Positions 3,690-62,594 of a DNA stretch of 64,000 bases are shown in pieces. The DNA is from an uncultured Candidatus Saccharibacteria bacterium. Its GTDB lineage: Bacteria > Patescibacteriota > Minisyncoccia > Phycocordibacterales > DSPV01. The first letter of the stretch is position 1. The number at the start of each line of letters is the position of its first letter. The translations under genes were made by a program, and so were the position numbers. The notes under the pieces were generated by a model. That model worked only from the letters and a program-made list of their open reading frames with translations, was not told where the DNA came from and searched no databases. The DNA is taken from assembly GCA_964349135.1 (NCBI GenBank), contig CAYGFK010000001.1, positions 10,717-74,716 of the forward strand, in the 5' to 3' direction.

Positions 3690-3819
3690 AAGATTGCCAC
3701 AAATAATCTACGTGTCAATATATTGCAGGGCGAGGAGGTATGGTCAGATGTATCTGGTAACAGTTCTTAGGGTTGCCTAGTTTTATGGTCAGACGACATC
3801 TAAATAGAAAGGGAAGATT

Positions 3820-4275
3820 ATGATTGATACGTTCGACAAAGTCTTTGAGGCGTTTTTGAAAATGTTTTGGGAGCACCACCGGCATTTTTCCGAGTGTAAC
3901 CAAACGGGGCGATGGTCACAGAGTGACATGGAACGCTTCAGTGAAAGTAAGATTCAACTTGAAGGAGCATCTCGCGTTCTCGGCATCAATGCTCGAGACC
4001 AAGCGCTTCTTCAGAGAAGCTTGCCACTCCTCGGCATGATTAATGGAAATAAGAGCGTGTCTATGAAACCACTCTTTGTCACGTTCATGACGTCGGATTC
4101 GCACTACGCATCTTTGAACGGAAGGCGGGCGATGGTGCTTGATATTATCGAGCAAAGATGGCTGTACCGTTTCGGTCTCGCGGTGAGTCTGAAATTCACC
4201 GATGACCAGCGCCAAACGTATGCCGGTATCGACGAGGTCTCGGTTATTCCCGAAGACAGCACACCCCCTCTGTAG
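3820..4275 (+). CDS. Hypothetical protein (151 aa)
   Basis: Strong SD AAAGGGAAG 7 nt before the ATG and its own terminator at 4262-4291. No recognisable domain. Confidence 0.5.
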   Translation: MIDTFDKVFEAFLKMFWEHHRHFSECNQTGRWSQSDMERFSESKIQLEGASRVLGINARDQALLQRSLPLLGMINGNKSVSMKPLFVTFMTSDSHYASLNGRRAMVLDIIEQRWLYRFGLAVSLKFTDDQRQTYAGIDEVSVIPEDSTPPL

Positions 4276-6239: not shown

Positions 6240-6262
6240 ATTTCAAGGTCCGACCTTGAAAT
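6240..6262. repeat. 23-bp perfect palindrome ATTTCAAGGTCCGACCTTGAAAT, copy 1
   Basis: 11-nt arms around a single C. An identical copy lies at 43238-43260. Confidence 0.8.
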
Positions 6263-43237: not shown

Positions 43238-43260
43238 TATTTCAAGGTCCGACCTTGAAA
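43238..43260. repeat. 23-bp perfect palindrome ATTTCAAGGTCCGACCTTGAAAT, copy 2
   Basis: Identical to 6240-6262. Again sits about 6 nt after a terminator T-run. Confidence 0.8.
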
Positions 43261-43354
43261 TGGAGGTGTTTGAACATTTAAACTTTTCTTTTCTGTCTTT
43301 TGTTCTATACTCTCGAGAGAATAAATTCCGGTCTTTGCCGGAGAAAGGAAGATT

Positions 43355-48777: not shown

Positions 48778-49632
48778 TTAGGATGAAAGATTTCCCCGGA
48801 GAAAATCCTGATAAGGCATTTCTCTTTTGTTTTCAGGTATAACGCTCTGTGGCTCGAACCCTCCTTCTGTCGTGAGTTTGGCATCAGTGATTTTTACTCG
48901 CAGGTCCCGCCCTTTTCGTGTTGCGATGAAATAGACGCCGGGCGATGACCGGTACGCCTTAAAACGCCTCCAGTTTTCGTTTGCGTCCATAGTGAGGTCG
49001 ATGAAGCCGTCCTCCTTAGTTATTTTCTTTGTGAAGGTTGCCTGTTCATGTTCTTGCTCTTCTGCGCGAAGGGTTCCCTCAATCCATTTTGGCAGAAGGT
49101 CTGCATACAGTTGCGCTCCTGTTATCGCGAGTACGGATTCAGCCTCATCTGCATCAGGGGTGTTTTCGAACGCTATCGCTTTGCATCCAAGGGTTGGTCC
49201 GTGGTCCATCTTATGGTCGAGCTTCATGACACAAACACCGAGTTCGCCCCCTTCTCTGATGGCTGTCCTGATAGGGGACGCTCCTCGATATTTTGGGAGG
49301 AGTGACGGGTGAATATTGAGAACACCATGTGGCGGGATATCGAGAATGTGTGGCGGGAGGAGTTTCCCGTATTCTGCGACCAGAAAGACGTCCGCCCCCA
49401 CTTCACGCAATGTTTTTTCCACGCTCTCATCTCTCAGGGTTTCGGGTTGGAGAGAGGGGATGGCATGCTGTGTTGCCCATATTTTTACGGGAGGAGAAGT
49501 GAGTGCGTGCCCCCGACCTTTCGGCTTGTCGGTTTCGGTGACAACGAGTGTCGGGAGTATTCCGCGTGCTTTGAGTGTCTCAAGAACGGTGACAGCGAAG
49601 TCTGCGGTACCAAAAAATATCATTGAGGTCAT
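48778..49632 (-). CDS. fmt: Methionyl-tRNA formyltransferase
   Basis: MIFFGTADFAV..., the SLLPKYRG motif and a C-terminal domain. Start taken at the internal Met; the track ORF extends upstream across the def stop. Confidence 0.9.
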   Translation of the reverse strand: MTSMIFFGTADFAVTVLETLKARGILPTLVVTETDKPKGRGHALTSPPVKIWATQHAIPSLQPETLRDESVEKTLREVGADVFLVAEYGKLLPPHILDIPPHGVLNIHPSLLPKYRGASPIRTAIREGGELGVCVMKLDHKMDHGPTLGCKAIAFENTPDADEAESVLAITGAQLYADLLPKWIEGTLRAEEQEHEQATFTKKITKEDGFIDLTMDANENWRRFKAYRSSPGVYFIATRKGRDLRVKITDAKLTTEGGFEPQSVIPENKREMPYQDFLRGNLSS

Positions 49633-49633
49633 A

Positions 49634-50182
49634 TTATTTTTCGAAATCCTCAGGATGAACTTCCTGGATATCTCGGGCTTTATCAATAAATAATATACCG
49701 TTGAGGTGGTCGGTTTCATGCTGGAATACTTGAGCAAGTAGGCCCGAGGCTCCTCGGGTGAACCGTTCTCCGTTCTCGTCGTACGCTTCAATGGTTGTCT
49801 TGGTTGCGCGTTCCACCTTACCGTAGAGCCATCGTACCGAGAGACATCCTTCCTCCATCCACGTTTTTTTCTTTGAAAGCCGTGTAATGCGAGGATTGAT
49901 GAATACCATATCTTTCGACGTTGATGGTTCCGAGAAGACCTCGCTTTTTTTACTGTTCCTGAGTTCGTCCTCTATGTCGAAGACTCTCTTCGACACAACG
50001 AAGATTCGCAATGTTTCTCCTATCTGCGGAGCGGCAATGGCAACGCCGTCCGGTTGTTCCTCAACGGCCTTCTTCATCTCCGAGATAATGCGTTGCAGGC
50101 GTGGAGACCCTATCTCTTCGATAGGGACTTCTTTGGATACCTCTCGCAAGGCATGATGGTCTTTTCCGACAATATTCGACAT
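49634..50182 (-). CDS. def: Peptide deformylase
   Basis: GIAAPQIG, EGCLSV, HETDHLNG motifs. Confidence 0.92.
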   Translation of the reverse strand: MSNIVGKDHHALREVSKEVPIEEIGSPRLQRIISEMKKAVEEQPDGVAIAAPQIGETLRIFVVSKRVFDIEDELRNSKKSEVFSEPSTSKDMVFINPRITRLSKKKTWMEEGCLSVRWLYGKVERATKTTIEAYDENGERFTRGASGLLAQVFQHETDHLNGILFIDKARDIQEVHPEDFEK

Positions 50183-50214
50183 AGGTTCATTATATAGTCT
50201 ATTGAAGATGATTT

Positions 50215-52095
50215 TTATGTAAAGCTCTCCGGGTCTACCGATAATTCTGCCGATGGGGGAAGTGAGCGGAGTATTGAGAGAATTCGTTCATTGGGCCACT
50301 CTTTTGCGGGTATCTTCATGACGCCGGATAGACCAGATTTGTTCTTTGCTTGTTTAAGAAAGACCGGGAAGATGTCTATTTCTTGAGGTGCAAGCGCTTG
50401 GACAAGTGCGTGCATCTCTTTACTGATTACCTCTTTCTGGCCGGAAAGGGTTATCTTTATCGGCACGGAAAATGGGGGATAGAGTAGTGTTTTGCGTAGT
50501 GCCAATTCGCCCTGAAAGAACGAGCTCAGGCTTCCTTCCGCAAAACTTGCAAGCGCATGAGAGTTTTCTGTTCGTGTTTGAATGATAAATTCTCGTTCCG
50601 CGAATTCAATTAAGTTTCCAAGGAGATAGCTGACACGTTCGTTTATGCGAAAATCAGGTATTGAGAAGAGTTCGTCAATCGAGGCGATAGCAACTGTACC
50701 CACGGGAGCTAAGAGATACGGGAGCATGAATTCGGTTCCAACAAGAACACTTCCGGGGGAGTTATAAAATTTCTCGATAAGCGCTTTCGCCTGTTTTCTG
50801 TTGGTTACCGATTCAGAATCCATTCTGATGACGACAAGGTCGTCGAAGACCTCATGGAGTTCTCGTTCGACGAGTTCAGTCCCGATGCCGAACGTGGCGA
50901 GTTTCCAACTGTTGCAGGAGGCGCACCTAATCGACGCATCTATTTTTTCTCCGCACCGGTGACAGAGGAAAAACCGGTTTTTTTCAGAAGTTCCGTGAAG
51001 TACGGTCGGGTGACCACATACGCTACAGGAAAGCAGGGTGCCACAATCTCCGCATATGGTTGTTGGGGCGAGCCCTTTTCTCCCGGCAAATACAATGACA
51101 CGGTCTGCAGAGGCTCGAGCGGTACGTATCTTTTCAATGAGTTCATCCGAGAGTGCGCGAGGCACACCTTTCAGACTTGGTTTATACGGCTTCATGTCGA
51201 TAAGGGAGACTCGAGATTTGGTGCTACGTCTCCATTTCAGCGGGACGAGTTCATCGATTTCATGCTCGTAGTACCGTTCAATAAGCGCGCTTGATAAAAT
51301 GGTATCTCCGAAAATGAGGCGTGCATGGGCGTGCCGGGCGTACGTACGTATGAAGAAACGGAAATCGATGAAAGGTCGGTTTCGTTGTTTATATGACGCA
51401 GAATTCTCGCGCTCTACGATAATGGTCCCGGCGCGGTCTGCGGCAATGCCGATGAATCCGGGAGTTGAGACCATAAGGAGCGGATGCGTTTCTTTATATA
51501 TTCGTTCGATATCAAGTGTCAGTGCGCGTAGTGTCTTTTTGCTGTGCAGCAGGAGCGAATACTCTTCGATACCTTTTGAGAGTTTTTCGAGAGCCGTTTC
51601 TGCTTCTTGTATCGTCGGGACGAGGAAGAGCACAGACTCTTTATGCCTGAATGCTTCGCGGATGAGAGAGCGGTATTGGCTGAACCTCTCCTCACTGTCG
51701 TTTTGGATTGCCTGCAGGGTCGGACGGGCAGTAGGCGCCGGCTCATGACGGGCTTCCGGGATTTTTTTGATGAGATTGAGCGGAAGAAGCGCGGTAAGTG
51801 TCGCTCCGAACGGAGCCGCATAGAATCGAGAGGTCTCCCGGGCTGCGGTAATGAAGGCGTCGCTTGAGAAACGCGGAGAGATGATTTTCCCAACTTTCTT
51901 CATTGAGAATGACGACGATTTAATTGACGTCTTTTCTTCACGGGCCTTTTTTGCCCCGATAACGAGTCCTGTCACGCTCTTCGAGCGAAGAGGGATATGC
52001 ACAAGACTGCCGATAGGTATTTCCTGCGCGCTGAAATACGTGAGGGTGTCGGCCCACACGCTTTTCTCGAGCGGGATGACCTCTATAATATGCAT
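50215..52095 (-). CDS. priA: Primosomal protein N' (replication restart helicase)
   Basis: Helicase core and Zn-binding CGDCGTLLSCSVCGHP...CHRCG...CASCNS. Confidence 0.9.
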   Translation of the reverse strand: MHIIEVIPLEKSVWADTLTYFSAQEIPIGSLVHIPLRSKSVTGLVIGAKKAREEKTSIKSSSFSMKKVGKIISPRFSSDAFITAARETSRFYAAPFGATLTALLPLNLIKKIPEARHEPAPTARPTLQAIQNDSEERFSQYRSLIREAFRHKESVLFLVPTIQEAETALEKLSKGIEEYSLLLHSKKTLRALTLDIERIYKETHPLLMVSTPGFIGIAADRAGTIIVERENSASYKQRNRPFIDFRFFIRTYARHAHARLIFGDTILSSALIERYYEHEIDELVPLKWRRSTKSRVSLIDMKPYKPSLKGVPRALSDELIEKIRTARASADRVIVFAGRKGLAPTTICGDCGTLLSCSVCGHPTVLHGTSEKNRFFLCHRCGEKIDASIRCASCNSWKLATFGIGTELVERELHEVFDDLVVIRMDSESVTNRKQAKALIEKFYNSPGSVLVGTEFMLPYLLAPVGTVAIASIDELFSIPDFRINERVSYLLGNLIEFAEREFIIQTRTENSHALASFAEGSLSSFFQGELALRKTLLYPPFSVPIKITLSGQKEVISKEMHALVQALAPQEIDIFPVFLKQAKNKSGLSGVMKIPAKEWPNERILSILRSLPPSAELSVDPESFT

Positions 52096-53618
52096 TAGAG
52101 CTCTCGCAAAATCTTAATTTTCGCACCAAGCTTTGCGAGTCGCTCGGCGATGTCTTCGTAACCGCGATTGATGGAATAGATATTTCTGAGAATCGATGTC
52201 CCTTCTGCACCGAGCATACCGATGAGTACGATGGCTGCGGGGCGGAGCGCCGGAGGGCAGATTATCTCATTTGCTTTGAGTTTTGTCGGACCGTTGATAA
52301 AGACGCGGTGAGGGTCGGCGAGAATAATGTCGGCACCGAGGCGGTCAAGTTCTTTGTAATGAATAGCGCGCGCTTCGTAGACCCAATCATGAATGAAGGT
52401 TTGTCCTTTCGCTTGAGTTGCGATGATGGCGAAGAAGGGAAGGTTGTCTATGTTCAGACCGGGGTATGGTCGAGCTTCGATTTTTTCGTCGAGTGCGGTG
52501 AGTTTTGAAGGAAATGTCTCAATGTCGACAAGCGCGGTCTGTCCGTTCTCAGACATATACGGTTTGCTCTTTTTGAATCGAAATCCCATCTTCTTGAGTT
52601 TCAGGAGCTCAAGCTCAAGAAAATGTATCGGACAGCGTTTTATGGTCAGGTTTGATTTGGTCACGATAGCAACCGCAAGCATGAACATGGATTCAATAGG
52701 GTCTTCGCTTAGGTGGTAGCGCGCCTTCACCTCAATATCCGGTTTGCCGTGCACCACGAGCGTGGTTGTGCCTATTCCGTCTACCTGTACGCCGAGCTCA
52801 TGAAGGAAGAAACAGAGGTCCTGAATTTGATAGTTCGCCGATGCGTATTTGATGGTTGTGGTTCCTTTAAACCGTGCGGCCGCCATCAGGACGTTTTCGG
52901 TTACCGTATCGCCTGATTCGTAGAGAATGATTTCACGACTCTTTGGTTTGCCGACCGTGACTCGGTGACCGGCACCAGAGGTTTTAATAGAAACGCCAAG
53001 GTTTTCAAGAGCGTAGAAATGCGGGCGCACTGTGCGTTTGCCAAGCTTACAACCTCCCGATTGCGGAAGAAAGAAGCTTTTTGCGATATGCATCAAAGGC
53101 CCGATGAGCATGATGACACTCCGTGTTTTTTGCGCTGATGCCACATTGATTGTAGAAAGTGAGAGTTTAGACGGCGGTTTGATGATAAGGTCGCTGTTTA
53201 CCCATCGAACTGAAACACCGATAGATTGCAGAACTTCAATCATGCGATACACCTCTTCTATTCTCGGCACGCTTACGAGCGTTGTTTCTCCTTTGTTGAG
53301 GAGTGCGGCGCAAATAAGACCCATCGCGGCATTTTTCGATGTCTTTGTGGTGATAGTTCCTGAGAGTGGGTGTCCGCCTTCGATTTCGAGATTGATGGCA
53401 CCATCGCCGATATGAATGATGTCTTTATTGAGAATGTTGCTGATGCGGGAGAGGAGGGAGGCGCTGACGTTTTGCGTTCCACTCTCGATGCGAGCGACAG
53501 CGCTCTGTGTCGTACCCAGACGCTTTGCAAACGCGTCTTGAGTGACACCACGCTCTTCGCGGAGATTTTTAATCAAGGAACCCAGCACAGAGAGCTGTTT
53601 GTTAGGTTTAGTAGGCAT
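52095..53618 (-). CDS. murA: UDP-N-acetylglucosamine 1-carboxyvinyltransferase fused to an N-terminal XRE-family HTH domain
   Basis: The first ~70 aa form a Cro/C1 HTH (LREERGVTQDAFAKRLGTTQSAVARIESG). The rest aligns end-to-end with MurA, including active-site Cys (GGCKLG) and C-terminal IYSINRGYEDIAERLAKLGAKI. The ATG at 53618 follows an in-frame TTG. Confidence 0.85.
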   Translation of the reverse strand: MPTKPNKQLSVLGSLIKNLREERGVTQDAFAKRLGTTQSAVARIESGTQNVSASLLSRISNILNKDIIHIGDGAINLEIEGGHPLSGTITTKTSKNAAMGLICAALLNKGETTLVSVPRIEEVYRMIEVLQSIGVSVRWVNSDLIIKPPSKLSLSTINVASAQKTRSVIMLIGPLMHIAKSFFLPQSGGCKLGKRTVRPHFYALENLGVSIKTSGAGHRVTVGKPKSREIILYESGDTVTENVLMAAARFKGTTTIKYASANYQIQDLCFFLHELGVQVDGIGTTTLVVHGKPDIEVKARYHLSEDPIESMFMLAVAIVTKSNLTIKRCPIHFLELELLKLKKMGFRFKKSKPYMSENGQTALVDIETFPSKLTALDEKIEARPYPGLNIDNLPFFAIIATQAKGQTFIHDWVYEARAIHYKELDRLGADIILADPHRVFINGPTKLKANEIICPPALRPAAIVLIGMLGAEGTSILRNIYSINRGYEDIAERLAKLGAKIKILREL

Positions 53619-53665
53619 CAAGACATTATAGCATAGATGCTATATCTTGCATATCTGGAATCTGG
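53619..53665 (-). promoter_or_regulatory. Putative promoter with an overlapping 18-bp palindromic operator (TATAGCAT-AG-ATGCTATA, 53627-53644) immediately upstream of HTH-murA
   Basis: Minus-strand reading is ATGCAA-17-TATAAT-GTCTTG-ATG. The palindrome covers the spacer and the -10 box. Confidence 0.45.
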
Positions 53666-53929
53666 AGGTAGATTGACAGTAACACCGTATCATGTTATTA
53701 TTGCATATAGTCGGGTCAGAACCTAGTAGAGCTCTCGAATGGTCATAACCCGAAATTCACATTATTGGTTCGTCACGCCAATGTCTCCTGAGTTTAATCC
53801 AATGCGATAACCAGACGAGGTACATTGAGGCCGACGCTGTCCGCACCATACCGTGTGTGACACCGGCCTCTTTTTATTTTTTGGTAACTGGACGCACTTC
53901 ACTAAAAGCTATAAGCTAGAAGCTACTCT

Positions 53930-54943
53930 ATGGCGTTTTTCTCAAAAAAATTAGGTATTGACCTTGGTACGGCAAACACCCTCGTATTTGTTCCCGGCAA
54001 AGGAGTCATTCTCAATGAACCGTCGGTAGTCGCACTTTCCGAACCGGACCGACGAATACTTGCGGTTGGTGTTGAAGCGAAGCGCATGATTGGCAAGACG
54101 CCGGAGAGCATTATCGCGTACCGACCCATGAAGGACGGTGTGATTGCCGACTACCGAGTGACGGAGACGATGCTTCGTTATTTTATACAAAAAGCACTCG
54201 GTCGCTGGAATATTATGAAGCCGGAAGTAATGATTTCCGTGCCGGCAGGTATCACGTCAACAGAACGCCGTGCCGTTATTGAAGCGGCTATTCGTGCCGG
54301 CGCGAAAAATGCGTATGTGGTCAAAGAGCCGATTCTTGCCGCTATCGGCGCGGGTATTCCTATTCATGAACCGGTTGGCCACATGGTCGTGGATATCGGA
54401 GGTGGTACCACTGACGTTGCTGTCATTTCACTCGGTGGCATCGTGGCATCGACATCCGTGAAATGCGCCGGAAATCGAATTGATTCGGCAATCGCTGACT
54501 ATCTTAAGAAAACGTACAATCTCGCTATCGGAGACAAAATGGCGGAAGATATCAAAATACAAATCGGTTCGGCGCTTCCTCTCGAGGAAGAGCTTTCAAT
54601 GATGGTGAAGGGGAGAGATTTTGTTACCGGCCTTCCTCGTTCGACAGAGTTCAAGACGAATGAGGTTGTCAAAGCCATCGGTCGTGAATTACGCGAAATG
54701 GTGAAGGCAATACGCGAAGTGCTTCAGGAGACACCTCCGGAGCTTGCGGCAGACATCATTGAGCGTGGCATTATTATGACCGGAGGAACTTCTCAATTAC
54801 GCAATTTGCCGGAACTTATTTTCCGTCGCACGGGTGTGCCTTGTAAACTGGCGAAAGATGCGCTCTTTTGTGTTGCGCGCGGTACCGGTGTTGCTCTAGC
54901 GCATCTCGAAAGCTACAAGAAAGCCATCGTCGCCAAGCGGTAG
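53930..54943 (+). CDS. mreB: Rod-shape actin homolog MreB (copy 1, stand-alone)
   Basis: LGIDLGTANTLVFV..., DIGGGTTDVAV, ATPase core. Confidence 0.9.
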   Translation: MAFFSKKLGIDLGTANTLVFVPGKGVILNEPSVVALSEPDRRILAVGVEAKRMIGKTPESIIAYRPMKDGVIADYRVTETMLRYFIQKALGRWNIMKPEVMISVPAGITSTERRAVIEAAIRAGAKNAYVVKEPILAAIGAGIPIHEPVGHMVVDIGGGTTDVAVISLGGIVASTSVKCAGNRIDSAIADYLKKTYNLAIGDKMAEDIKIQIGSALPLEEELSMMVKGRDFVTGLPRSTEFKTNEVVKAIGRELREMVKAIREVLQETPPELAADIIERGIIMTGGTSQLRNLPELIFRRTGVPCKLAKDALFCVARGTGVALAHLESYKKAIVAKR

Positions 54944-57498: not shown

Positions 57499-58755
57499 AT
57501 GCGCCAGTCAGAGCTATTCACTAAAACACGAAAAGAGGCCCCAAAGGATGAATTATCCAAGAATGCGAAGCTTCTTATCCGTGGAGGATTTATTCATAAG
57601 GAAATGGCGGGTGTGTACTCGTTTCTTCCGCTTGGATTGCGCGTGCTCGATAAGGTAGTGAATGTGATTCGTGAAGAGATGAACGCCGTTGGCGGGCAGG
57701 AGGTGCACTTGTCGACACTTCAAAGTAAGGAAGCGTGGGAAGCAACCGGACGATGGGACGACAAATCAGTCGATACGTGGTTTAAGACATCACTGCGCTC
57801 TGGTGGCGAAATCGGTCTTGGTTTTACGCATGAAGAGCCTATGACACGAATGATGCGGGAGCATGTGCGTAGTTTTCGCGACCTACCGGTATACCCATAC
57901 CAATTTCAAATGAAGTTTAGGAATGAGGAGCGCGCGAAGTCAGGGCTTATGCGAACCCGTGAATTTTTAATGAAAGACCTCTATTCAATTTCTCGAGATA
58001 CCAAAGAGCATGAGCGTTTCTATGAGACGATAACTCTGGCGTATAAAAAGGTGTTTGAACGTCTTGGCATTGGCCCGTTTACGCATCTTACCTATGCGTC
58101 AGGCGGTTCGTTTAGCAAATATTCTCACGAGTTTCAGACGCTTTGTGAGGCCGGGGAAGACACCATTCATCTCTGCCGGGACTGTGGCGTGGCGGTGAAT
58201 GAGGAAATACACAGCGAACAGAACACGTGCCCTCAGTGTAAGAGCGAAGCGCTTGTTGAAAAGAAGGCGGTTGAGGTAGGTAATATATTTTCGCTCGGTA
58301 CTCGCTTTTCTGAAGCACTCGGGCTTGTGTATGTGGATGAACGGAATGAATCAAAGCCTGCCGTGATGGGCAGTTACGGTATTGGTCCGGGACGATTGAT
58401 TGGTACCATTGTTGAATTGTTTTCTGATGAAAAGAGCATTCTCTTCCCGAAGAGTATCGCTCCTTTCTCGGTACACCTCTTGCTTCTTGATACGGACAAT
58501 GAAAAAGCGCGTACGCAGGCGGAAATCCTCTACAATGAACTATCCGCTGATGGCATCGACGTTCTCTTTGATGACAGGCCTTCGCGTGCAGGAGAGAAGT
58601 TCGCGGACGCAGACCTCATTGGTATTCCGCTTCGTCTTGTCGTGAGTGAACGTACGCTCAAAGAGGACGCTATAGAAGTAGTAAACCGTCGGGGTGGGGA
58701 TGTCTCCCATGTGCCGGCGAAGAAAATAAAAGGGTATCTGCATGAACATCTTTGA
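57499..58755 (+). CDS. proS: Prolyl-tRNA synthetase, minimal bacterial-type without the INS editing domain (418 aa), with a CxxC-x13-CxxC insertion
   Basis: LLIRGGFIHKEMAGVYSFLPLGLRVL, motif 2 FRNEERAKSGLMRTREFLMKD, and an anticodon-binding domain. CRDCG...CPQCK replaces the loop before GNIFSLGT. Confidence 0.85.
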   Translation: MRQSELFTKTRKEAPKDELSKNAKLLIRGGFIHKEMAGVYSFLPLGLRVLDKVVNVIREEMNAVGGQEVHLSTLQSKEAWEATGRWDDKSVDTWFKTSLRSGGEIGLGFTHEEPMTRMMREHVRSFRDLPVYPYQFQMKFRNEERAKSGLMRTREFLMKDLYSISRDTKEHERFYETITLAYKKVFERLGIGPFTHLTYASGGSFSKYSHEFQTLCEAGEDTIHLCRDCGVAVNEEIHSEQNTCPQCKSEALVEKKAVEVGNIFSLGTRFSEALGLVYVDERNESKPAVMGSYGIGPGRLIGTIVELFSDEKSILFPKSIAPFSVHLLLLDTDNEKARTQAEILYNELSADGIDVLFDDRPSRAGEKFADADLIGIPLRLVVSERTLKEDAIEVVNRRGGDVSHVPAKKIKGYLHEHL

Positions 58756-59809
58756 GGAACAAATCGAAAAACTCTACCGGCTTTTTTCGCACGACTTAGG
58801 AATTGACCTTGGTACGGCAAATACGCTTGTCTACGTACGGGGGAGGGGCATTGTGGTCAATGAACCTTCGGTTGTTGCGCTCAATCAGAAAACCGGACAG
58901 GTGGTTGCTGTCGGCAATCAGGCCAAAGCCATGCTCGGCAGGACACCGCCTCATATCAGCGCGATTAGACCGCTTGTTGAGGGTGTCATCTCGGATTTCG
59001 AAGTGACGGAAGAAATGATTTCGTACCTTATGAATCGCGCGCAGGAAGGGGGGCGCAAGTATTTCGGTCCTCGCGTTGTGGTTGGTGTGCCGTCCGGGGT
59101 GACGAACGTCGAGTCGCGCGCCGTGCGTGATGCAACAAAGAATAGTGGGGCACGCGAAGTGTACATTGTGGAACAGCCAATGGCTGCGGCAATCGGCATC
59201 AGACTTCCGGTCAAGGACCCGGTGGGGAATATGATTATCGATATCGGCGGTGGAACTACCGATATTGCCGTTTTGTCGCTTGGCGGAACCGTTCGTTCTC
59301 GAAATCTAAAGACTGCTGGTGACCATTTCAATAACGATATCGTGTCGTACATCAGAAATGAGTTTAAAATACTGATTGGTGAGAAGACGGCAGAGCAGAT
59401 TAAGATTGCTATCGGTTCGGCAATGCATGAAGGGGAGTCGATGGAAGCGGTTGTGAAAGGCCGTGATTTGGTGACAGGTCTGCCTCGAGAAGTGGTGGTG
59501 ACTGATGCGGATGTTCGAGAGGCGATTGGTCAATCGGTGGACACCATCGTTGAGGCGACACGAGAAGTTCTTGAAAAGACACCGCCCGAGCTGGTGTCGG
59601 ACATTATGCAAAAAGGTATCTTTCTTGTCGGCGGGGGCGCGCTCCTCAAAGGTCTTGCCAAATTCCTCGAACAGAATTTGCGAATTCCGATTCATGTTGC
59701 TGATGACCCGCTGACGGCCGTTGCCCGTGGGGCAGGCATTATTCTTGAGGATATGGACCGTTATAGAGATACTCTGATTCACTATGAAGAGGATGATAGG
59801 GCTGGCTAG
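58742..59809 (+). CDS. mreB: MreB (copy 2, heading the mreBCD-mrdA operon)
   Basis: LGIDLGTANTLVYV, DIGGGTTDIAV. Sequence is distinct from copy 1. Confidence 0.9.
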   Translation: MNIFEEQIEKLYRLFSHDLGIDLGTANTLVYVRGRGIVVNEPSVVALNQKTGQVVAVGNQAKAMLGRTPPHISAIRPLVEGVISDFEVTEEMISYLMNRAQEGGRKYFGPRVVVGVPSGVTNVESRAVRDATKNSGAREVYIVEQPMAAAIGIRLPVKDPVGNMIIDIGGGTTDIAVLSLGGTVRSRNLKTAGDHFNNDIVSYIRNEFKILIGEKTAEQIKIAIGSAMHEGESMEAVVKGRDLVTGLPREVVVTDADVREAIGQSVDTIVEATREVLEKTPPELVSDIMQKGIFLVGGGALLKGLAKFLEQNLRIPIHVADDPLTAVARGAGIILEDMDRYRDTLIHYEEDDRAG

Positions 59810-60611
59810 GTCAGCGCGCGGACCGCGCCACAAGGTGTCCTTTGTATTCACTCTGGTGCTCGTTCTTGTTGCTATACTCTCTTTTTGGAAGCCGTCTGTG
59901 ATATCCAATGTGGTCTACACGATATCCGTACCGTTTTCGCGTTCGTGGCTCTATATTGAATCGAAGAGCAGAGAAGTGCTTGTGTATTTTGAATCAAAAA
60001 CAGTTCTTGAACGTGAGAACGAAAAGCTTTCTCAGGATTTGCGTTCGGCACAGCTTGAACTTTTGTTATTTACATCGCTTGCGCCCGACGTTGCCCGTCT
60101 AAAAACATTTCTTGCCGATGAGCGACCGAAGAGTAGCATTGTGTCAGGTGTCTTAAGCGCGCCACCGCGCTCCCCGTATGACACACTCGTTATCGACGCC
60201 GGCGCAAGAGACGGCGCGACCATCGGAGCACTTGTGCACAGTATGGAAGGTGTCGCGCTTGGTACCATTACAGAAACGTTTAGAGACTTTTCTCGAGTGA
60301 CCCTCTTCTCTTCTCCGGGGAATGAGATTGGGGTGCGCATTGGTGAATCGCAGACTCAGGTGCAGGCGATTGGTATTGGCAATGGAGAGTTTCAGTTGCT
60401 TCTCCCGCGCGAACTCGAGATACATGTCGGAGACCCGGTTGCCTTTCCGGACCTTCTCCCGTCAATTATCGGCGAAGTTGGTTCGGTCACGTATCAGGAC
60501 GTTGATTTCCTCCAACTTGTTTCATTTCGTATTCCCGTGAACATGAATACACTTCGTTATGTTTTGGTGGAGACAGAACCTACTAACGGTGAAGGTGAGA
60601 ATGGAAACTAA
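59784..60611 (+). CDS. mreC: Rod shape-determining protein MreC
   Basis: N-terminal TM, coiled coil, beta-rich C-terminal domains. Operon position. Start overlaps the mreB end. Confidence 0.7.
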   Translation: MKRMIGLARSARGPRHKVSFVFTLVLVLVAILSFWKPSVISNVVYTISVPFSRSWLYIESKSREVLVYFESKTVLERENEKLSQDLRSAQLELLLFTSLAPDVARLKTFLADERPKSSIVSGVLSAPPRSPYDTLVIDAGARDGATIGALVHSMEGVALGTITETFRDFSRVTLFSSPGNEIGVRIGESQTQVQAIGIGNGEFQLLLPRELEIHVGDPVAFPDLLPSIIGEVGSVTYQDVDFLQLVSFRIPVNMNTLRYVLVETEPTNGEGENGN

Positions 60612-60882
60612 GACACAATCTAAAATATTTTTTGTACTCGTGTGGGTGTTTTCGCTTATCGCGCTCCCGTGGTGGGGGACTTCGATTGTGGCGCTCATGT
60701 CTTTTTTCGTGTTTCGCTCTCCGGCAGTATCGCTTACCCTCGGGTTTGGTATGGATGTATATTATGGTTCGATAACGTCCGCATTCTTTCCGTTTCCATT
60801 TCTTGTCTCGGCAGTCATTCTTAGTTTTCTTGTCCCGCGTTTTAAACGACAACTTGTCTTTTGGCGCTCGGGCGACGCATAG
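60601..60882 (+). CDS. mreD: MreD-like small membrane protein
   Basis: 93 aa with 3 TM, overlapping the mreC stop. Position between mreC and PBP2. Confidence 0.5.
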   Translation: METKTQSKIFFVLVWVFSLIALPWWGTSIVALMSFFVFRSPAVSLTLGFGMDVYYGSITSAFFPFPFLVSAVILSFLVPRFKRQLVFWRSGDA

Positions 60883-60887
60883 TTTTT

Positions 60888-62594
60888 ATGAAGTTTTTTT
60901 CATTTAGGAAAAAGAGACTGAGGGAGAGTTCGGCTGAGCATGAAATAGAGCCGGACGAGATTTTCCTTGATTCAAGTAATTTACCTCAATTCGACAAATA
61001 CCAATTTGAGGGCCGGCTCGAAAAAGCGATTTCGGCCAAGACAGTTACGTTTTGGGGCTTCGCCTTTCTCTTGTGCGGACTGATTCTTCTTGGCCGGACC
61101 TGGGTATTACAGATTGCACGAGGTGAGTCATACGCAGAGTTGGCGCAGAAGAATCGTTTGCGCAGTTCGGTTATCTTCGCTCCCCGCGGTCTTATCGAAG
61201 ACAGGAATGGGGAACCGCTTGCCGTGAATAAAGCGAACGAAGAACATCCTCATTATCCCTCGAGAGAATACGTGACCGGAGGCGGTTTCAGTCACTTACT
61301 AGGGTATATCGAGTATCCAAAAACCGACTCCTCAGGTGTTTATTTTCGTACGGAATACGTTGGAAAAGAAGGTGTCGAGTATCTCTACAACGCGGTTCTT
61401 AAGGGAGAGAATGGTCTCCAGATTAGCGAAGAGAATGCGCGGGGAGATGTCGAGTCGGAGAGCGTTATCCAGCTCCCCCGATATGGACTCAACCTCACGC
61501 TCTCGGTTGATAAGCGTTTACAGCAGAAGCTTTATGAACTCATCAAGTCGACTGCGTCTGACCGAGGGTTTGTGGGAGGTGCGGCGGGTATCATGGACAT
61601 TGAAACCGGAGAACTCTTAGTGCTCACGAGTTTCCCCGAATATGATTCGAATATCATGTCCGAGGGAAGCGACCCTGAAGCAATCTCTGATTTTCTCACC
61701 GACGAACGCCAAGTCTTCCTTAATCGAAGCGTTGACGGTCTCTATGCGCCCGGCTCAATTATGAAGCCGTTCATAGCGGTAGGTGCCCTCATTGAAGGGG
61801 TCATTTCCCCCGACAAACAAATCTTGAGCACGGGTTCCATTTCTATTCCGAATCCATACAACCCTTCGAGCGTTTCCGTGTTTCGGGACTGGAAGGCGCA
61901 CGGTCTTGTCGATATGCGAGAAGCGCTTGCCGTATCGTCAGATGTTTATTTCTATGAAATTGGAGGAGGATTTGAAGACCAACAAGGGCTTGGCATTGAG
62001 CGCATAAAGAAATACCTCATGCTATTCGGTTTTGGTGACCGTAATTCTGACAACGAACTACTTCAGGTATCAGGCACTATTCCGGACCCGAAATGGAAAG
62101 CGGAGACCTTTGAAGGAGAACCATGGCGCATTGGAGATACGTATAACACATCAATCGGGCAGTATGGAACGCAGGTGACCCTTATGCAGGTGCTTCGGGC
62201 GACAGCCGCACTTACAAATGGCGGGCGTCTTATCGAGCCGACTCTCATGGTCGGCGGGAATCGTGGTCGTGTGCACGAAAAGAAGCTTGATATACCGGAA
62301 AGCGTTCTCAAGGTGGTTCAGGAAGGTATGCGAGATGCCGTGCTCTTCGGTACGGCATCAGGTCTTGGGGTTGGCGGAGTTGAGGTGGCGGCGAAAACCG
62401 GAACTGCCGAAATCGGGAGTCGGAAGCTTTATGTCAATTCGTGGATTGAAGGATTCTTTCCCTATGACGACCCTCGATACGCTTTTGTCGTACTTATGGA
62501 GCGAGGACCTCATGACAACACGGTGGGTGCCCTTTTCGTCATGAGACAGTTTATCGACTGGCTAAGCATTGAGGCCCCTGAATATCTCAAATAG
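60888..62594 (+). CDS. mrdA: Penicillin-binding protein 2 (elongasome transpeptidase)
   Basis: SIMKP (SxxK), SSD (SxN), KTGTAE (KTG). Confidence 0.85.
   Translation: MKFFSFRKKRLRESSAEHEIEPDEIFLDSSNLPQFDKYQFEGRLEKAISAKTVTFWGFAFLLCGLILLGRTWVLQIARGESYAELAQKNRLRSSVIFAPRGLIEDRNGEPLAVNKANEEHPHYPSREYVTGGGFSHLLGYIEYPKTDSSGVYFRTEYVGKEGVEYLYNAVLKGENGLQISEENARGDVESESVIQLPRYGLNLTLSVDKRLQQKLYELIKSTASDRGFVGGAAGIMDIETGELLVLTSFPEYDSNIMSEGSDPEAISDFLTDERQVFLNRSVDGLYAPGSIMKPFIAVGALIEGVISPDKQILSTGSISIPNPYNPSSVSVFRDWKAHGLVDMREALAVSSDVYFYEIGGGFEDQQGLGIERIKKYLMLFGFGDRNSDNELLQVSGTIPDPKWKAETFEGEPWRIGDTYNTSIGQYGTQVTLMQVLRATAALTNGGRLIEPTLMVGGNRGRVHEKKLDIPESVLKVVQEGMRDAVLFGTASGLGVGGVEVAAKTGTAEIGSRKLYVNSWIEGFFPYDDPRYAFVVLMERGPHDNTVGALFVMRQFIDWLSIEAPEYLK

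Follow-up and report, generated by a model that had tools for sequence, protein, structure and literature searches.

An XRE-type helix-turn-helix domain fused to MurA, with a candidate operator over its own promoter, in Patescibacteria and Actinomycetota

The window, that is, the whole stretch of 64,000 nucleotides that was analysed, carries the HTH-murA coding sequence on its minus strand at positions 52095–53618, as a single uninterrupted ORF of 507 aa plus stop read from an ATG at 53618–53616 to a stop codon at 52097–52095; the ORF listing places the start one codon earlier, at a TTG at 53621. The stop codon overlaps the ATG of priA (50215–52095, minus strand) as TAATG, def (49634–50182) and fmt (about 48778–49638) follow on the same strand, and murA-priA-def-fmt probably form one operon, whose downstream genes span 48778–52095. 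Among 80 related loci, priA lies downstream of murA in 64 and def in 47. On the upstream side an MreB/Mbl paralogue is encoded divergently on the plus strand (53930–54943; Pfam MreB_Mbl, 446 bits). The same divergent mreB is found upstream of murA in 65 of the 80 loci, which represents a conserved context and does not imply control by HTH-MurA.

The N-terminal part of the protein is an XRE/Cro-C1 helix-turn-helix domain (aa 12–67; 53418–53585, minus strand), delimited with Pfam HTH_3 and the AF2 model. In the complete protein HTH_3 matched aa 16–67 (E 4.4e-14, 52.7 bits, cutoff 23) and EPSP_synthase aa 80–494 (E 8.9e-48), while the isolated domain gave 56.1 bits with HTH_3 and was likewise above cutoff with HTH_31 and HTH_19. 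The AF2 model (pLDDT 87.8) comprises a four-helix HTH (aa 7–22, 27–34, 38–45 and 53–62, with the helix 2-turn-helix 3 arrangement in place), a flexible linker and a MurA fold, the linker being located at aa 63–73 (53400–53432, minus strand; pLDDT about 58 over the block and below 50 for aa 67–73). The predicted recognition helix, TTQSAVARIE (aa 36–45; 53484–53513, minus strand), has Q38, S39, A42, R43 and E45 invariant in 117 homologues, and its T37/S37 variant tracks the class of operator described below. That HTH and MurA form one polypeptide, as the initial annotation had it, is borne out by these two domains in a single ORF, and the domain search which it had proposed returned both of them together with further instances, since PF00275 and PF01381 were combined in one protein of about 500–510 aa in all 120 best homologues (63–76% identical).

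The remainder of the protein is a MurA (UDP-GlcNAc enolpyruvyl transferase) domain, aa 76–507 (52098–53393, minus strand), assigned by NF006873, phmmer and Foldseek. MurA is the enzyme on which fosfomycin acts, and it performs the first committed step in making peptidoglycan. The domain scored 322 bits with the NCBIfam MurA subfamily model NF006873 (cutoff 297), covered positions 2–417 of the 417 of the PF00275 profile, i.e. its full length, and matched MurA entries of the PDB by phmmer with an E of 1.5e-55. The AF2 model displays the two-domain inside-out alpha/beta barrel; in Foldseek it reached a target-normalised TM of 0.90 to the MurA structure 5ujs, and the top 43 matches were all MurA. 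Residues K95, C190, R195, D391, R417 and R459 align with the catalytic residues of MurA (K22, C115, R120, D305, R371 and R397 in E. coli) and are invariant in the 117 homologues. The codon of Cys190 lies at 53049–53051 (minus strand), where GGCKLGKR aligns with GGCAIGQR of Campylobacter jejuni MurA in an invariant column; this cysteine corresponds to E. coli Cys115, the residue targeted by fosfomycin. With the strict murA equivalog TIGR01072 the score was 313.3 bits, below the cutoff of 392.7. By these profile scores HTH-MurA is a divergent MurA subfamily, for which TIGR01072 does not certify strict functional equivalence.

In front of the gene, a consensus extended -10 element, TGCTATAAT, was located at 53625–53633 of the minus strand, and its hexamer stops 6 nt short of the ATG, a smaller gap than the roughly 10 nt stated at first. 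The extended -10 TG was present in 68 of 69 loci, with TATACT as the hexamer in 31 and TATAAT in 20. The -35-like element is weak (ATGCAA, 53647–53652, minus strand, 16 nt 5' of the -10; 3/6 match to TTGACA), and a promoter scan of the window listed no minus-strand promoter for HTH-murA, which fits a dependence on the extended -10. Transcription is predicted to start at, or adjoining, the A of the ATG (53616–53618, minus strand), and the 6 nt before it, GTCTTG, hold no Shine-Dalgarno sequence. A gap of 6–8 nt between -10 and start codon recurs in 20 of the 69 loci of the first set, the window included, and in 8/8 actinobacterial loci examined, so that the leaderless transcript suggested by the initial annotation is plausible.

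Over this promoter lies the candidate operator, TATAGCAT-AG-ATGCTATA (53627–53644), a perfect palindrome of 18 bp (8+2+8) that scores 23.2 bits with the family PWM and has its conserved core at 53628–53643 (ATAGCATNNATGCTAT). The overlap with the -10 noticed at the outset was confirmed, the proximal arm running into the extended -10 on the minus strand. The palindrome is unique in the window even with three mismatches permitted. Perfect palindromes with 8-bp arms and spacers of 0–4 nt are not rare there, 31 having been counted versus about 5 in shuffled sequences, most of them GC-rich terminator stems; the significance of the dyad therefore comes from its position and its conservation in related loci rather than from the palindrome alone. 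A dyad was found within 260 nt upstream in 68 of 71 fused genome loci, 67 of them at 14 bits or more. Two further loci had no upstream sequence. The 16-bp dyad precedes 67 of 69 fused genes versus none of 9 unfused orthologues. The family PWM had only three off-target matches, all weak, in the 738 kb scanned. As the motif is essentially one site, a role of the HTH in tethering the enzyme to DNA, the other option raised initially, is unlikely. Furthermore, dyad, -10 and start codon are arranged alike from CPR bacteria through to actinobacteria of about 70% GC: the dyad ends inside the -10, and 6–8 nt and the start codon follow, as seen for the window, many CPR loci and all eight actinobacterial loci.

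The proximal arm is confounded with the extended -10, and only the distal arm and symmetric changes can argue for an operator. The distal arm is conserved to the same degree as the proximal one. Moreover, the dyad is lost together with the HTH: it was absent from all nine unfused orthologues in the same mreB-murA-priA slot (Fisher p = 7e-6), which sit at no fewer than four separate places in the MurA tree and point to at least four independent losses of the HTH; some of these loci keep the promoter half only (e.g. L058, with TATGCTATAGT). The arms also change symmetrically with the recognition helix. TTQS is paired with ATAGCA-TATA-TGCTAT, with G at arm position 4 in 58 of 63. In 77 metagenome loci that make up an independent set, TSQS goes with ATATCA-N4-TGATAT, and 56 of them have the strict dyad versus a background of 0.065 per 200 nt. 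In Actinomycetota, TSQSAVARIEQG is paired with ATCTCA..TGAGAT and TSQGAVTRIE with AACTCA-TATA-TGAGTT. These classes are structured by phylogeny, and the independent transitions behind them in the MurA tree are few. In all, the dyad is conserved and co-varies with the HTH domain in well over a hundred relatives. The idea that MurA represses its own transcription, already put forward in the initial annotation, thus finds strong comparative support in operator conservation, loss with the HTH and symmetric co-variation, repression itself being suggested by the position of the operator.

We therefore consider it probable that HTH-MurA is both an active UDP-GlcNAc enolpyruvyl transferase and a repressor of its own promoter. 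Two molecules would place their N-terminal HTHs on both arms of the 16–18-bp dyad ATAGCAT-N2-ATGCTAT, whose half-site centres would be about 10 bp apart on the same helix face. The dyad would occupy roughly -27 to -10 of the extended -10 promoter, and the bound protein would for this reason exclude RNA polymerase. Transcription of the leaderless murA, and probably also of the co-oriented priA-def-fmt, would then drop as the enzyme builds up, a negative feedback which would set how much there is of this first committed enzyme of peptidoglycan synthesis. We infer from sequence that the protein binds physically, which sign the regulation has and that the start is leaderless. Cooperation of two molecules has against it that solved MurA enzymes are generally monomers, that in the XRE repressors known to us the dimer contact lies C-terminal to the HTH, and that helix 4 of the AF2 model is not followed by a fifth one. 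In favour, XRE regulators typically act as dimers on palindromes 5' of their own genes, which they thereby autoregulate (PMC12565409). Catalytic and DNA-binding domains share one polypeptide in HTH-MurA, as would suit a trigger enzyme, i.e. a protein combining catalysis with gene regulation (Commichau and Stulke 2008, as cited in PMC6524683).

The alternative that fares best, though we regard it as unlikely, is that the fused protein is mainly a transcription factor, its MurA-like domain being a ligand sensor of the BzdR type, or a specialised paralogue, with a separate canonical MurA supplying peptidoglycan precursors. This would agree with the TIGR01072 score below cutoff, with an identity of only 24–30% to solved MurA enzymes and with the 54% identity between CPR and actinobacterial fused proteins, which suggests a distinct, horizontally shared subfamily. 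In addition, in Intrasporangium and Terrabacter the fused gene lies among fatty-acid and other metabolic genes and not among cell-wall genes, so that such large genomes may have another murA. Nevertheless, all tested catalytic and substrate-contact residues are invariant in 117 sequences, which would be unexpected in a pure sensor, and in Patescibacteria the fused gene takes the very mreB-murA-priA slot held by the unfused MurA of sister lineages. No second MurA was found within the 64-kb window, and none of the genomes of the 80 loci gave two copies. Even this alternative would keep DNA binding at the dyad.

Decidedly less probable is that the HTH binds no DNA and serves as a protein-interaction module, for instance a RodZ-like one contacting MreB, the palindrome belonging to the promoter or serving a different regulator. 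RodZ binds MreB through a cytoplasmic XRE-like HTH domain, most loci have mreB as their conserved divergent neighbour, and the extended -10 alone accounts for the proximal arm. However, the RodZ-type model HTH_25 gave 12.5 bits (cutoff 24.6) versus the 56 bits of HTH_3, and no membrane segment was found after the HTH, where the Pfam match and AF2 model have the MurA domain directly next. The nearest solved domains (PezA, PlcR, SinR, HipB and C.BclI) all belong to DNA-binding XRE repressors. Also against it stand the conservation of the distal arm, its symmetric changes with the recognition helix, and the fact that the dyad disappears with the HTH in the independent losses while mreB and the promoter half are kept. 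HTH-murA and its dyad are, moreover, retained without mreB as a neighbour.

It is still harder to credit that the symmetry merely reflects back-to-back promoters for murA and mreB instead of a site for a dimeric repressor. Read on the plus strand, the distal arm gives TGCTATATC, a -10-like sequence directed towards mreB, and TTGCAA-type -35 hexamers adjoining the dyad are palindromic in some loci, but the mreB start lies anywhere from 43 to 1790 nt away from the dyad, and in the window a much better plus-strand promoter (TTGACA-17-TATTAT) is available at 53673–53701. Moreover, the dyad persists next to upstream genes that are co-oriented or unrelated, as in Actinomycetota and the basal clade, and is absent from unfused loci that still have a divergent mreB. 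Finally, the idea of an artefactual fusion, in which a frameshift or mis-assembly joined a small XRE gene to murA, can be discarded for all practical purposes. Nothing was found in its favour, and architecture and linker are identical in every one of the 120 best hits of two separate searches, on many independent contigs of up to 1 Mb, as well as in 151 fused loci drawn from independent assemblies and in the finished genomes of cultured species. On this record the fusion is real and ancient.

Several known systems resemble the autorepressor proposed here, among them trigger enzymes with a DNA-binding domain of their own, such as BirA and PutA. BirA, the textbook case, is the biotin protein ligase of E. 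coli and repressor of the bio operon; it likewise joins an N-terminal HTH to a metabolic enzyme and represses as a dimer on a palindromic operator overlapping the promoter, as is predicted for HTH-MurA. However, its HTH is winged and without sequence relationship to the XRE/Cro-C1 domain, and it represses the biotin biosynthesis operon and not its own gene, whereas the predicted target of HTH-MurA is its own promoter. Dimerisation and binding of BirA are driven by the reaction intermediate biotinyl-5'-AMP; we know of no co-repressor for HTH-MurA. PutA (proline utilisation A) of enterobacteria, an enzyme with a DNA-binding domain, acts on operators within the put control region to repress its own gene, the same combination as is predicted here, but it uses a ribbon-helix-helix, catabolic activities, several operators and a switch based on redox-driven membrane association, while MurA is biosynthetic and essential and has a single dyad. 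The restriction-modification C-protein genes are often transcribed as leaderless mRNAs. The DNA-binding fold is shared with 434 and P22 Cro and CI, SinR, HipB, PezA and C.BclI, and small XRE autorepressors act as dimers on short dyads over their own promoters (PMC12565409). These are, however, stand-alone regulators or antitoxins of about 70–110 aa with their own dimerisation surfaces, none joined to a core biosynthetic enzyme. BzdR-type regulators also have an XRE HTH, a linker and an enzyme-fold domain (shikimate-kinase-like in BzdR), and the BzdR model NF006015 matched the HTH weakly (33 bits, cutoff 204). The enzyme-like domain of BzdR is a non-catalytic effector sensor; HTH-MurA, unlike it, keeps every catalytic residue and shares fold, catalytic residues and, in sister Patescibacteria, gene slot with canonical unfused MurA.

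As for novelty, the initial annotation knew of no HTH-MurA fusion. No published description of one, or of a self-repressing MurA, was found in the literature searched, but the architecture itself is neither rare nor unseen: database entries number in the thousands, across Patescibacteria and also from RefSeq genomes of Actinomycetota in culture (Intrasporangium, Terrabacter, Humibacillus), annotated merely as MurA or as "helix-turn-helix domain-containing protein".

A further, rather speculative step, which we hold to be possible but doubtful, is that HTH-MurA goes beyond a concentration-dependent autorepressor and acts as a flux sensor, the module having moved as a unit between Patescibacteria and Actinomycetota. 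When UDP-GlcNAc and PEP bind, MurA closes from its open state in a large movement; it also forms a dead-end complex with UDP-MurNAc and PEP. The closing movement might control dimerisation or, by way of the short linker, how far the HTH can reach, and precursor supply would then directly set transcription of the leaderless murA operon. If so, this operon would couple three processes of bacteria with minimal genomes: wall synthesis (murA), the restart of replication (priA) and the initiation of translation (def, fmt).

How the cellular level of MurA is set is an active question. In Firmicutes, ClpCP degrades MurA by way of ReoM/ReoY/PrkA, and another form of control is feedback, in which UDP-MurNAc binds the enzyme; in the systems known to us, its abundance is controlled post-translationally or by such binding, and not by a DNA-binding domain on the enzyme. 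HTH-MurA appears to carry its own transcriptional feedback loop and, if this is true, a core cell-wall enzyme would join the short list of enzymes doubling as repressors. The presence of the module and a matching dyad in cultured Intrasporangium, Terrabacter and Humibacillus makes the prediction testable at the bench now, and the natural helix/operator variants TTQS, TSQS and TSQG are ready material for specificity swaps. As far as we are aware, gene regulation is almost unknown in the Patescibacteria, a huge and mostly uncultured group, for which this would be one of very few sequence-defined triplets of regulator, operator and promoter.

The HTH-murA gene lies on the minus strand and runs in a single frame of 507 aa from an ATG at 53618 to a stop codon at 52097-52095. 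Pfam places an XRE/Cro-C1 HTH at aa 16-67 (HTH_3, E 4e-14) and a full-length EPSP_synthase-fold domain at aa 80-494 (E 9e-48), the latter being assigned by NCBIfam to the MurA subfamily NF006873 (322 bits vs a cutoff of 297) and missing the cutoff of the strict murA equivalog TIGR01072 (313 vs 392.7 bits). Alignment to solved MurA enzymes located the catalytic Cys loop GGCKLGKR (C190) together with K95, R195, D391, R417 and R459, residues which are invariant across an alignment of 117 homologues. The AlphaFold2 model (mean pLDDT 87.8) comprises four helices within aa 7-62, a linker at aa 63-73 with a block pLDDT of about 58 (below 50 at aa 67-73) and, C-terminal to it, a confident MurA fold, the TM between model and MurA structures being 0.90. 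A fifth helix is absent from the HTH of this monomer model; MurA enzymes are generally monomers. No solved structure spanning the HTH and MurA domains together was present among the structure matches to the model. The protein is a bona fide XRE HTH joined to a MurA-subfamily enzyme.

The initial annotation had read the two domains as one polypeptide, and this was borne out, a frameshift or assembly artefact being ruled out by an architecture common to all 240 homologues listed and to 151 fused loci. Both domains reside in one protein of ~500-510 aa in all of the 120 best homologues (63-76% identity), which come from many independent assemblies of Taylorbacteria, Paceibacterota and further Patescibacteria, with contigs of up to 0.3-1.0 Mb in some cases. 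When one genome per species was scanned, giving 80 loci, the HTH was fused in 71 and the orthologous MurA started directly at the enzyme domain in 9. Moreover, when 1.84 billion cluster representatives were searched with aa 1-118, 190 clusters reached an E of 1e-10 or better, and 66 of the best 150 representatives combine the recognition helix with the MurA SKN motif. With a high-GC relative as the query, a further search recovered the same architecture from cultured Actinomycetota (including Intrasporangium calvum, Terrabacter, Humibacillus, Terracoccus and Lapillicoccus), in which the protein is annotated as MurA or 'helix-turn-helix domain-containing protein'. Aligned over the full length, with the HTH and the Cys, the I. 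calvum and window proteins share 54% identity, while solved MurA enzymes share only 24-30% with the window MurA domain; on these identities the fused genes form one distinct subfamily common to Patescibacteria and Actinomycetota, and horizontal transfer would most simply explain its sharing between the two phyla. The fusion is genuine, and it is both ancient and widely distributed. As for labelling, the Patescibacteria-type gene was also met on contigs labelled Jiangellaceae, Nanoarchaeia or Gammaproteobacteria (L079, L051, L041 and L049); L079 is genuinely high-GC and clusters with the actinobacterial type, and the labels of the other three look like binning or labelling errors.

Upstream of HTH-murA the minus strand reads TTCCAGATATGCAAGATATAGCATCTATGCTATAATGTCTTGATG, which includes an 18-bp perfect palindrome at 53627-53644. 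Its promoter-proximal arm continues into TGCTATAAT, a consensus extended -10, whose hexamer lies just 6 nt from the ATG, with no Shine-Dalgarno sequence in between; the -35 is weak (ATGCAA). This palindrome sequence occurs once in the window. Nevertheless, perfect palindromes with 8-bp arms are common there (31, vs ~5 in shuffles), so that significance drawn from the window alone was dropped and the case for an operator must rest on comparison. Among the other palindromes, a perfect one of 23 bp, ATTTCAAGGTCCGACCTTGAAAT, occurs twice (6240-6262 and 43239-43261), each copy a few to ~15 nt past an intrinsic-terminator-like hairpin with a T-run, and may be another regulator's operator or an intergenic repeat.

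The comparison showed that, of the 71 fused genome loci, 68 have a 16-bp dyad, ATAGCATATATGCTAT, no more than 260 nt upstream, and that upstream sequence is absent for two of the three others. With a symmetric PWM, 67 dyad sites score at least 14 bits, and besides these and the window's own site, which is the single one in 64 kb, just three weak matches appear in 674 kb of related loci and the 64-kb window. The distal arm plays no part in the promoter and equals the proximal arm in invariance, and the dyad is retained with HTH-murA also at loci that lack mreB or have an unrelated gene upstream. The palindrome is, on this comparative evidence, a putative operator belonging to the HTH. The same scan leaves a larger regulon unsupported, as it does the earlier suggestion that the HTH tethers the enzyme to DNA. 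Conserved co-regulation of mreB through the murA dyad is likewise unsupported, the distance between them ranging from 43 to 1790 nt. One related locus, L003, has its intact operator and -10 (about 3808-3826) some 175 nt before the start and retains a decayed copy, ACATACATCTAACCTATAT, at the usual position next to the start codon, which suggests that the promoter-operator module can duplicate or relocate.

The dyad is lost together with the HTH. In a strict class-agnostic test it was present in 54/69 fused and 0/9 unfused loci (Fisher p = 7e-6), and the unfused genes occupy four or more separate positions on a neighbour-joining MurA tree. The mreB-murA-priA neighbourhood is retained at the unfused loci, some of which keep the promoter half alone, e.g. 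L058, with TATGCTATAGT, 6 nt and then the ATG.

In addition, the arms change symmetrically in step with the recognition helix. TTQS(A/V)(I/V)ARIE helices accompany ATAGCA..TGCTAT arms, TSQS proteins ATA(T/C)CA..TGATAT arms, high-GC members with TSQSAVARIEQG the form ATCTCA-TATN-TGAGAT, and TSQGAVTRIE of I. calvum and Terrabacter the perfect dyad TAACTCATATATGAGTTA. The putative TSQS operator class was confirmed in an independent set of 80 metagenome loci of that clade, all fused and 77 with upstream sequence, of which 56 carry the strict dyad against a background of 0.065 per 200 nt, with the consensus ATATCA-N4-TGATAT. Differences between classes fall at the same position of both arms, as would be predicted of a homodimer site, unlike a one-sided promoter element. 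These classes are phylogenetically structured, so the independent transitions are few; one, at L011, is nested within the TTQS clade. As to geometry, the end of the dyad falls inside the -10, which is TATACT or TATAAT in Patescibacteria, with TG in 68/69 loci, and TANNNT followed by 6-8 nt and an ATG or GTG in 70%-GC actinobacteria (8/8 loci read). In the first set (68 loci and the window) the gap from -10 to start is 6-7 nt in 15 loci and no longer than 9 nt in 20, one of which is the window; the rest have leaders of 25-40 nt.

The most economical reading of these data is steric autorepression by HTH-MurA, for which we infer both the binding and the sign of the regulation. Two HTH domains would occupy half-sites ~10 bp apart and, since the pair would thereby cover about -27 to -10 of the extended -10 promoter, RNA polymerase and HTH-MurA would compete for the same DNA. 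The transcript would probably start at the ATG and so be leaderless. Downstream, the start of priA overlaps the murA stop by one base (TAATG at 52095), which suggests translational coupling of a cell-wall enzyme with the replication-restart helicase; def and fmt come next on the same strand, and priA lies downstream of murA in 64/80 loci. The feedback loop probably governs a small operon (murA, priA, def and fmt). In 19 of 68 related loci a DnaA-box-like 9-mer, TTATCCACA, or a close variant lies on the murA strand 20-38 nt upstream of the operator, whereas its frequency across the loci predicts ~0.7 (L005, L008, L009, L017, L018, L030, L031, L042, L053, L055, L061, L062, L064, L070, L073 and others). 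The window has no such 9-mer, its sequence at that position being CCTCCAGAT; DnaA may provide an input to the murA-priA promoter in some lineages.

Among other readings, the MurA domain may act as a sensor only or serve a paralogue role, especially in Actinomycetota; nevertheless, its active site is invariant, fused MurA is syntenic with unfused MurA in Patescibacteria, and such a role would itself still involve the operator. No second murA was found in the 64-kb window. A RodZ-like HTH binding MreB was made attractive by the divergent mreB, but it was rejected on the coupled-loss data, in which the dyad tracks the HTH, not mreB, on the domain scores (HTH_25 12.5 bits, well under its cutoff, vs 56 for HTH_3) and on the nearest solved domains, which are DNA binders. 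The dyad as back-to-back divergent promoters fails, because geometry varies and loci without divergent genes also exist.

The spacer between murA and mreB has features of its own. At 53673-53701 on the plus strand, a sigma-70 promoter close to consensus (TTGACA, 17 nt with TG, TATTAT) is followed ~125 nt further on by a strong terminator-like hairpin (GAGGCCG...CGGCCTC, 53827-53870) and then TTTTTATTTTTT, and the two (53673-53882, plus strand) would yield a ~175-nt RNA ending ~50 nt before the mreB ATG, which could be a small RNA or an attenuating leader. Its sequence is unconserved in the closest loci; Rfam gave nothing for the spacer at gathering thresholds, with chance-level matches only at E up to 5, and the fold z-score is only -1.7, so that a structured RNA was rejected as an explanation of the spacer. 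A conserved block, GCTATA(C/A)GCTA, within CGCTGTACGCTATACGCTAC, lies directly 5' of the mreB start in the window (53895-53929, plus strand) and its closest relatives, L002 and L003, and resembles a proximal promoter, from which mreB too would have a very short leader. The window holds two MreB/Mbl paralogues on the plus strand, 53930-54943 and 58742-59809 (446 and 459 bits). The first, divergent from murA, stands alone ahead of a DNA polymerase III delta-prime-like gene, and the second is followed by an ORF (59784-60611) and a PBP2-type transpeptidase (60861-62594), an arrangement resembling the classical rod-shape cluster.

XRE proteins typically act as dimers that control their own genes from palindromes 5' of them (PMC12565409), and proteins uniting catalysis with gene regulation are termed trigger enzymes (PMC6524683). 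BirA and PutA, too, are enzymes that carry a DNA-binding domain and repress through an operator overlapping the promoter, and small XRE autorepressors and the C proteins of restriction-modification systems are also similar; the likeness is functional, HTH-MurA being homologous to none of the enzyme-repressors. In the literature searched, neither an HTH-MurA fusion nor MurA as a regulator of its own transcription was described, though this does not prove that no such account exists, and databases contain thousands of copies annotated just as MurA or HTH protein. Since HTH-MurA occurs in cultured actinobacteria, the proposed autoregulation is directly testable at the bench.
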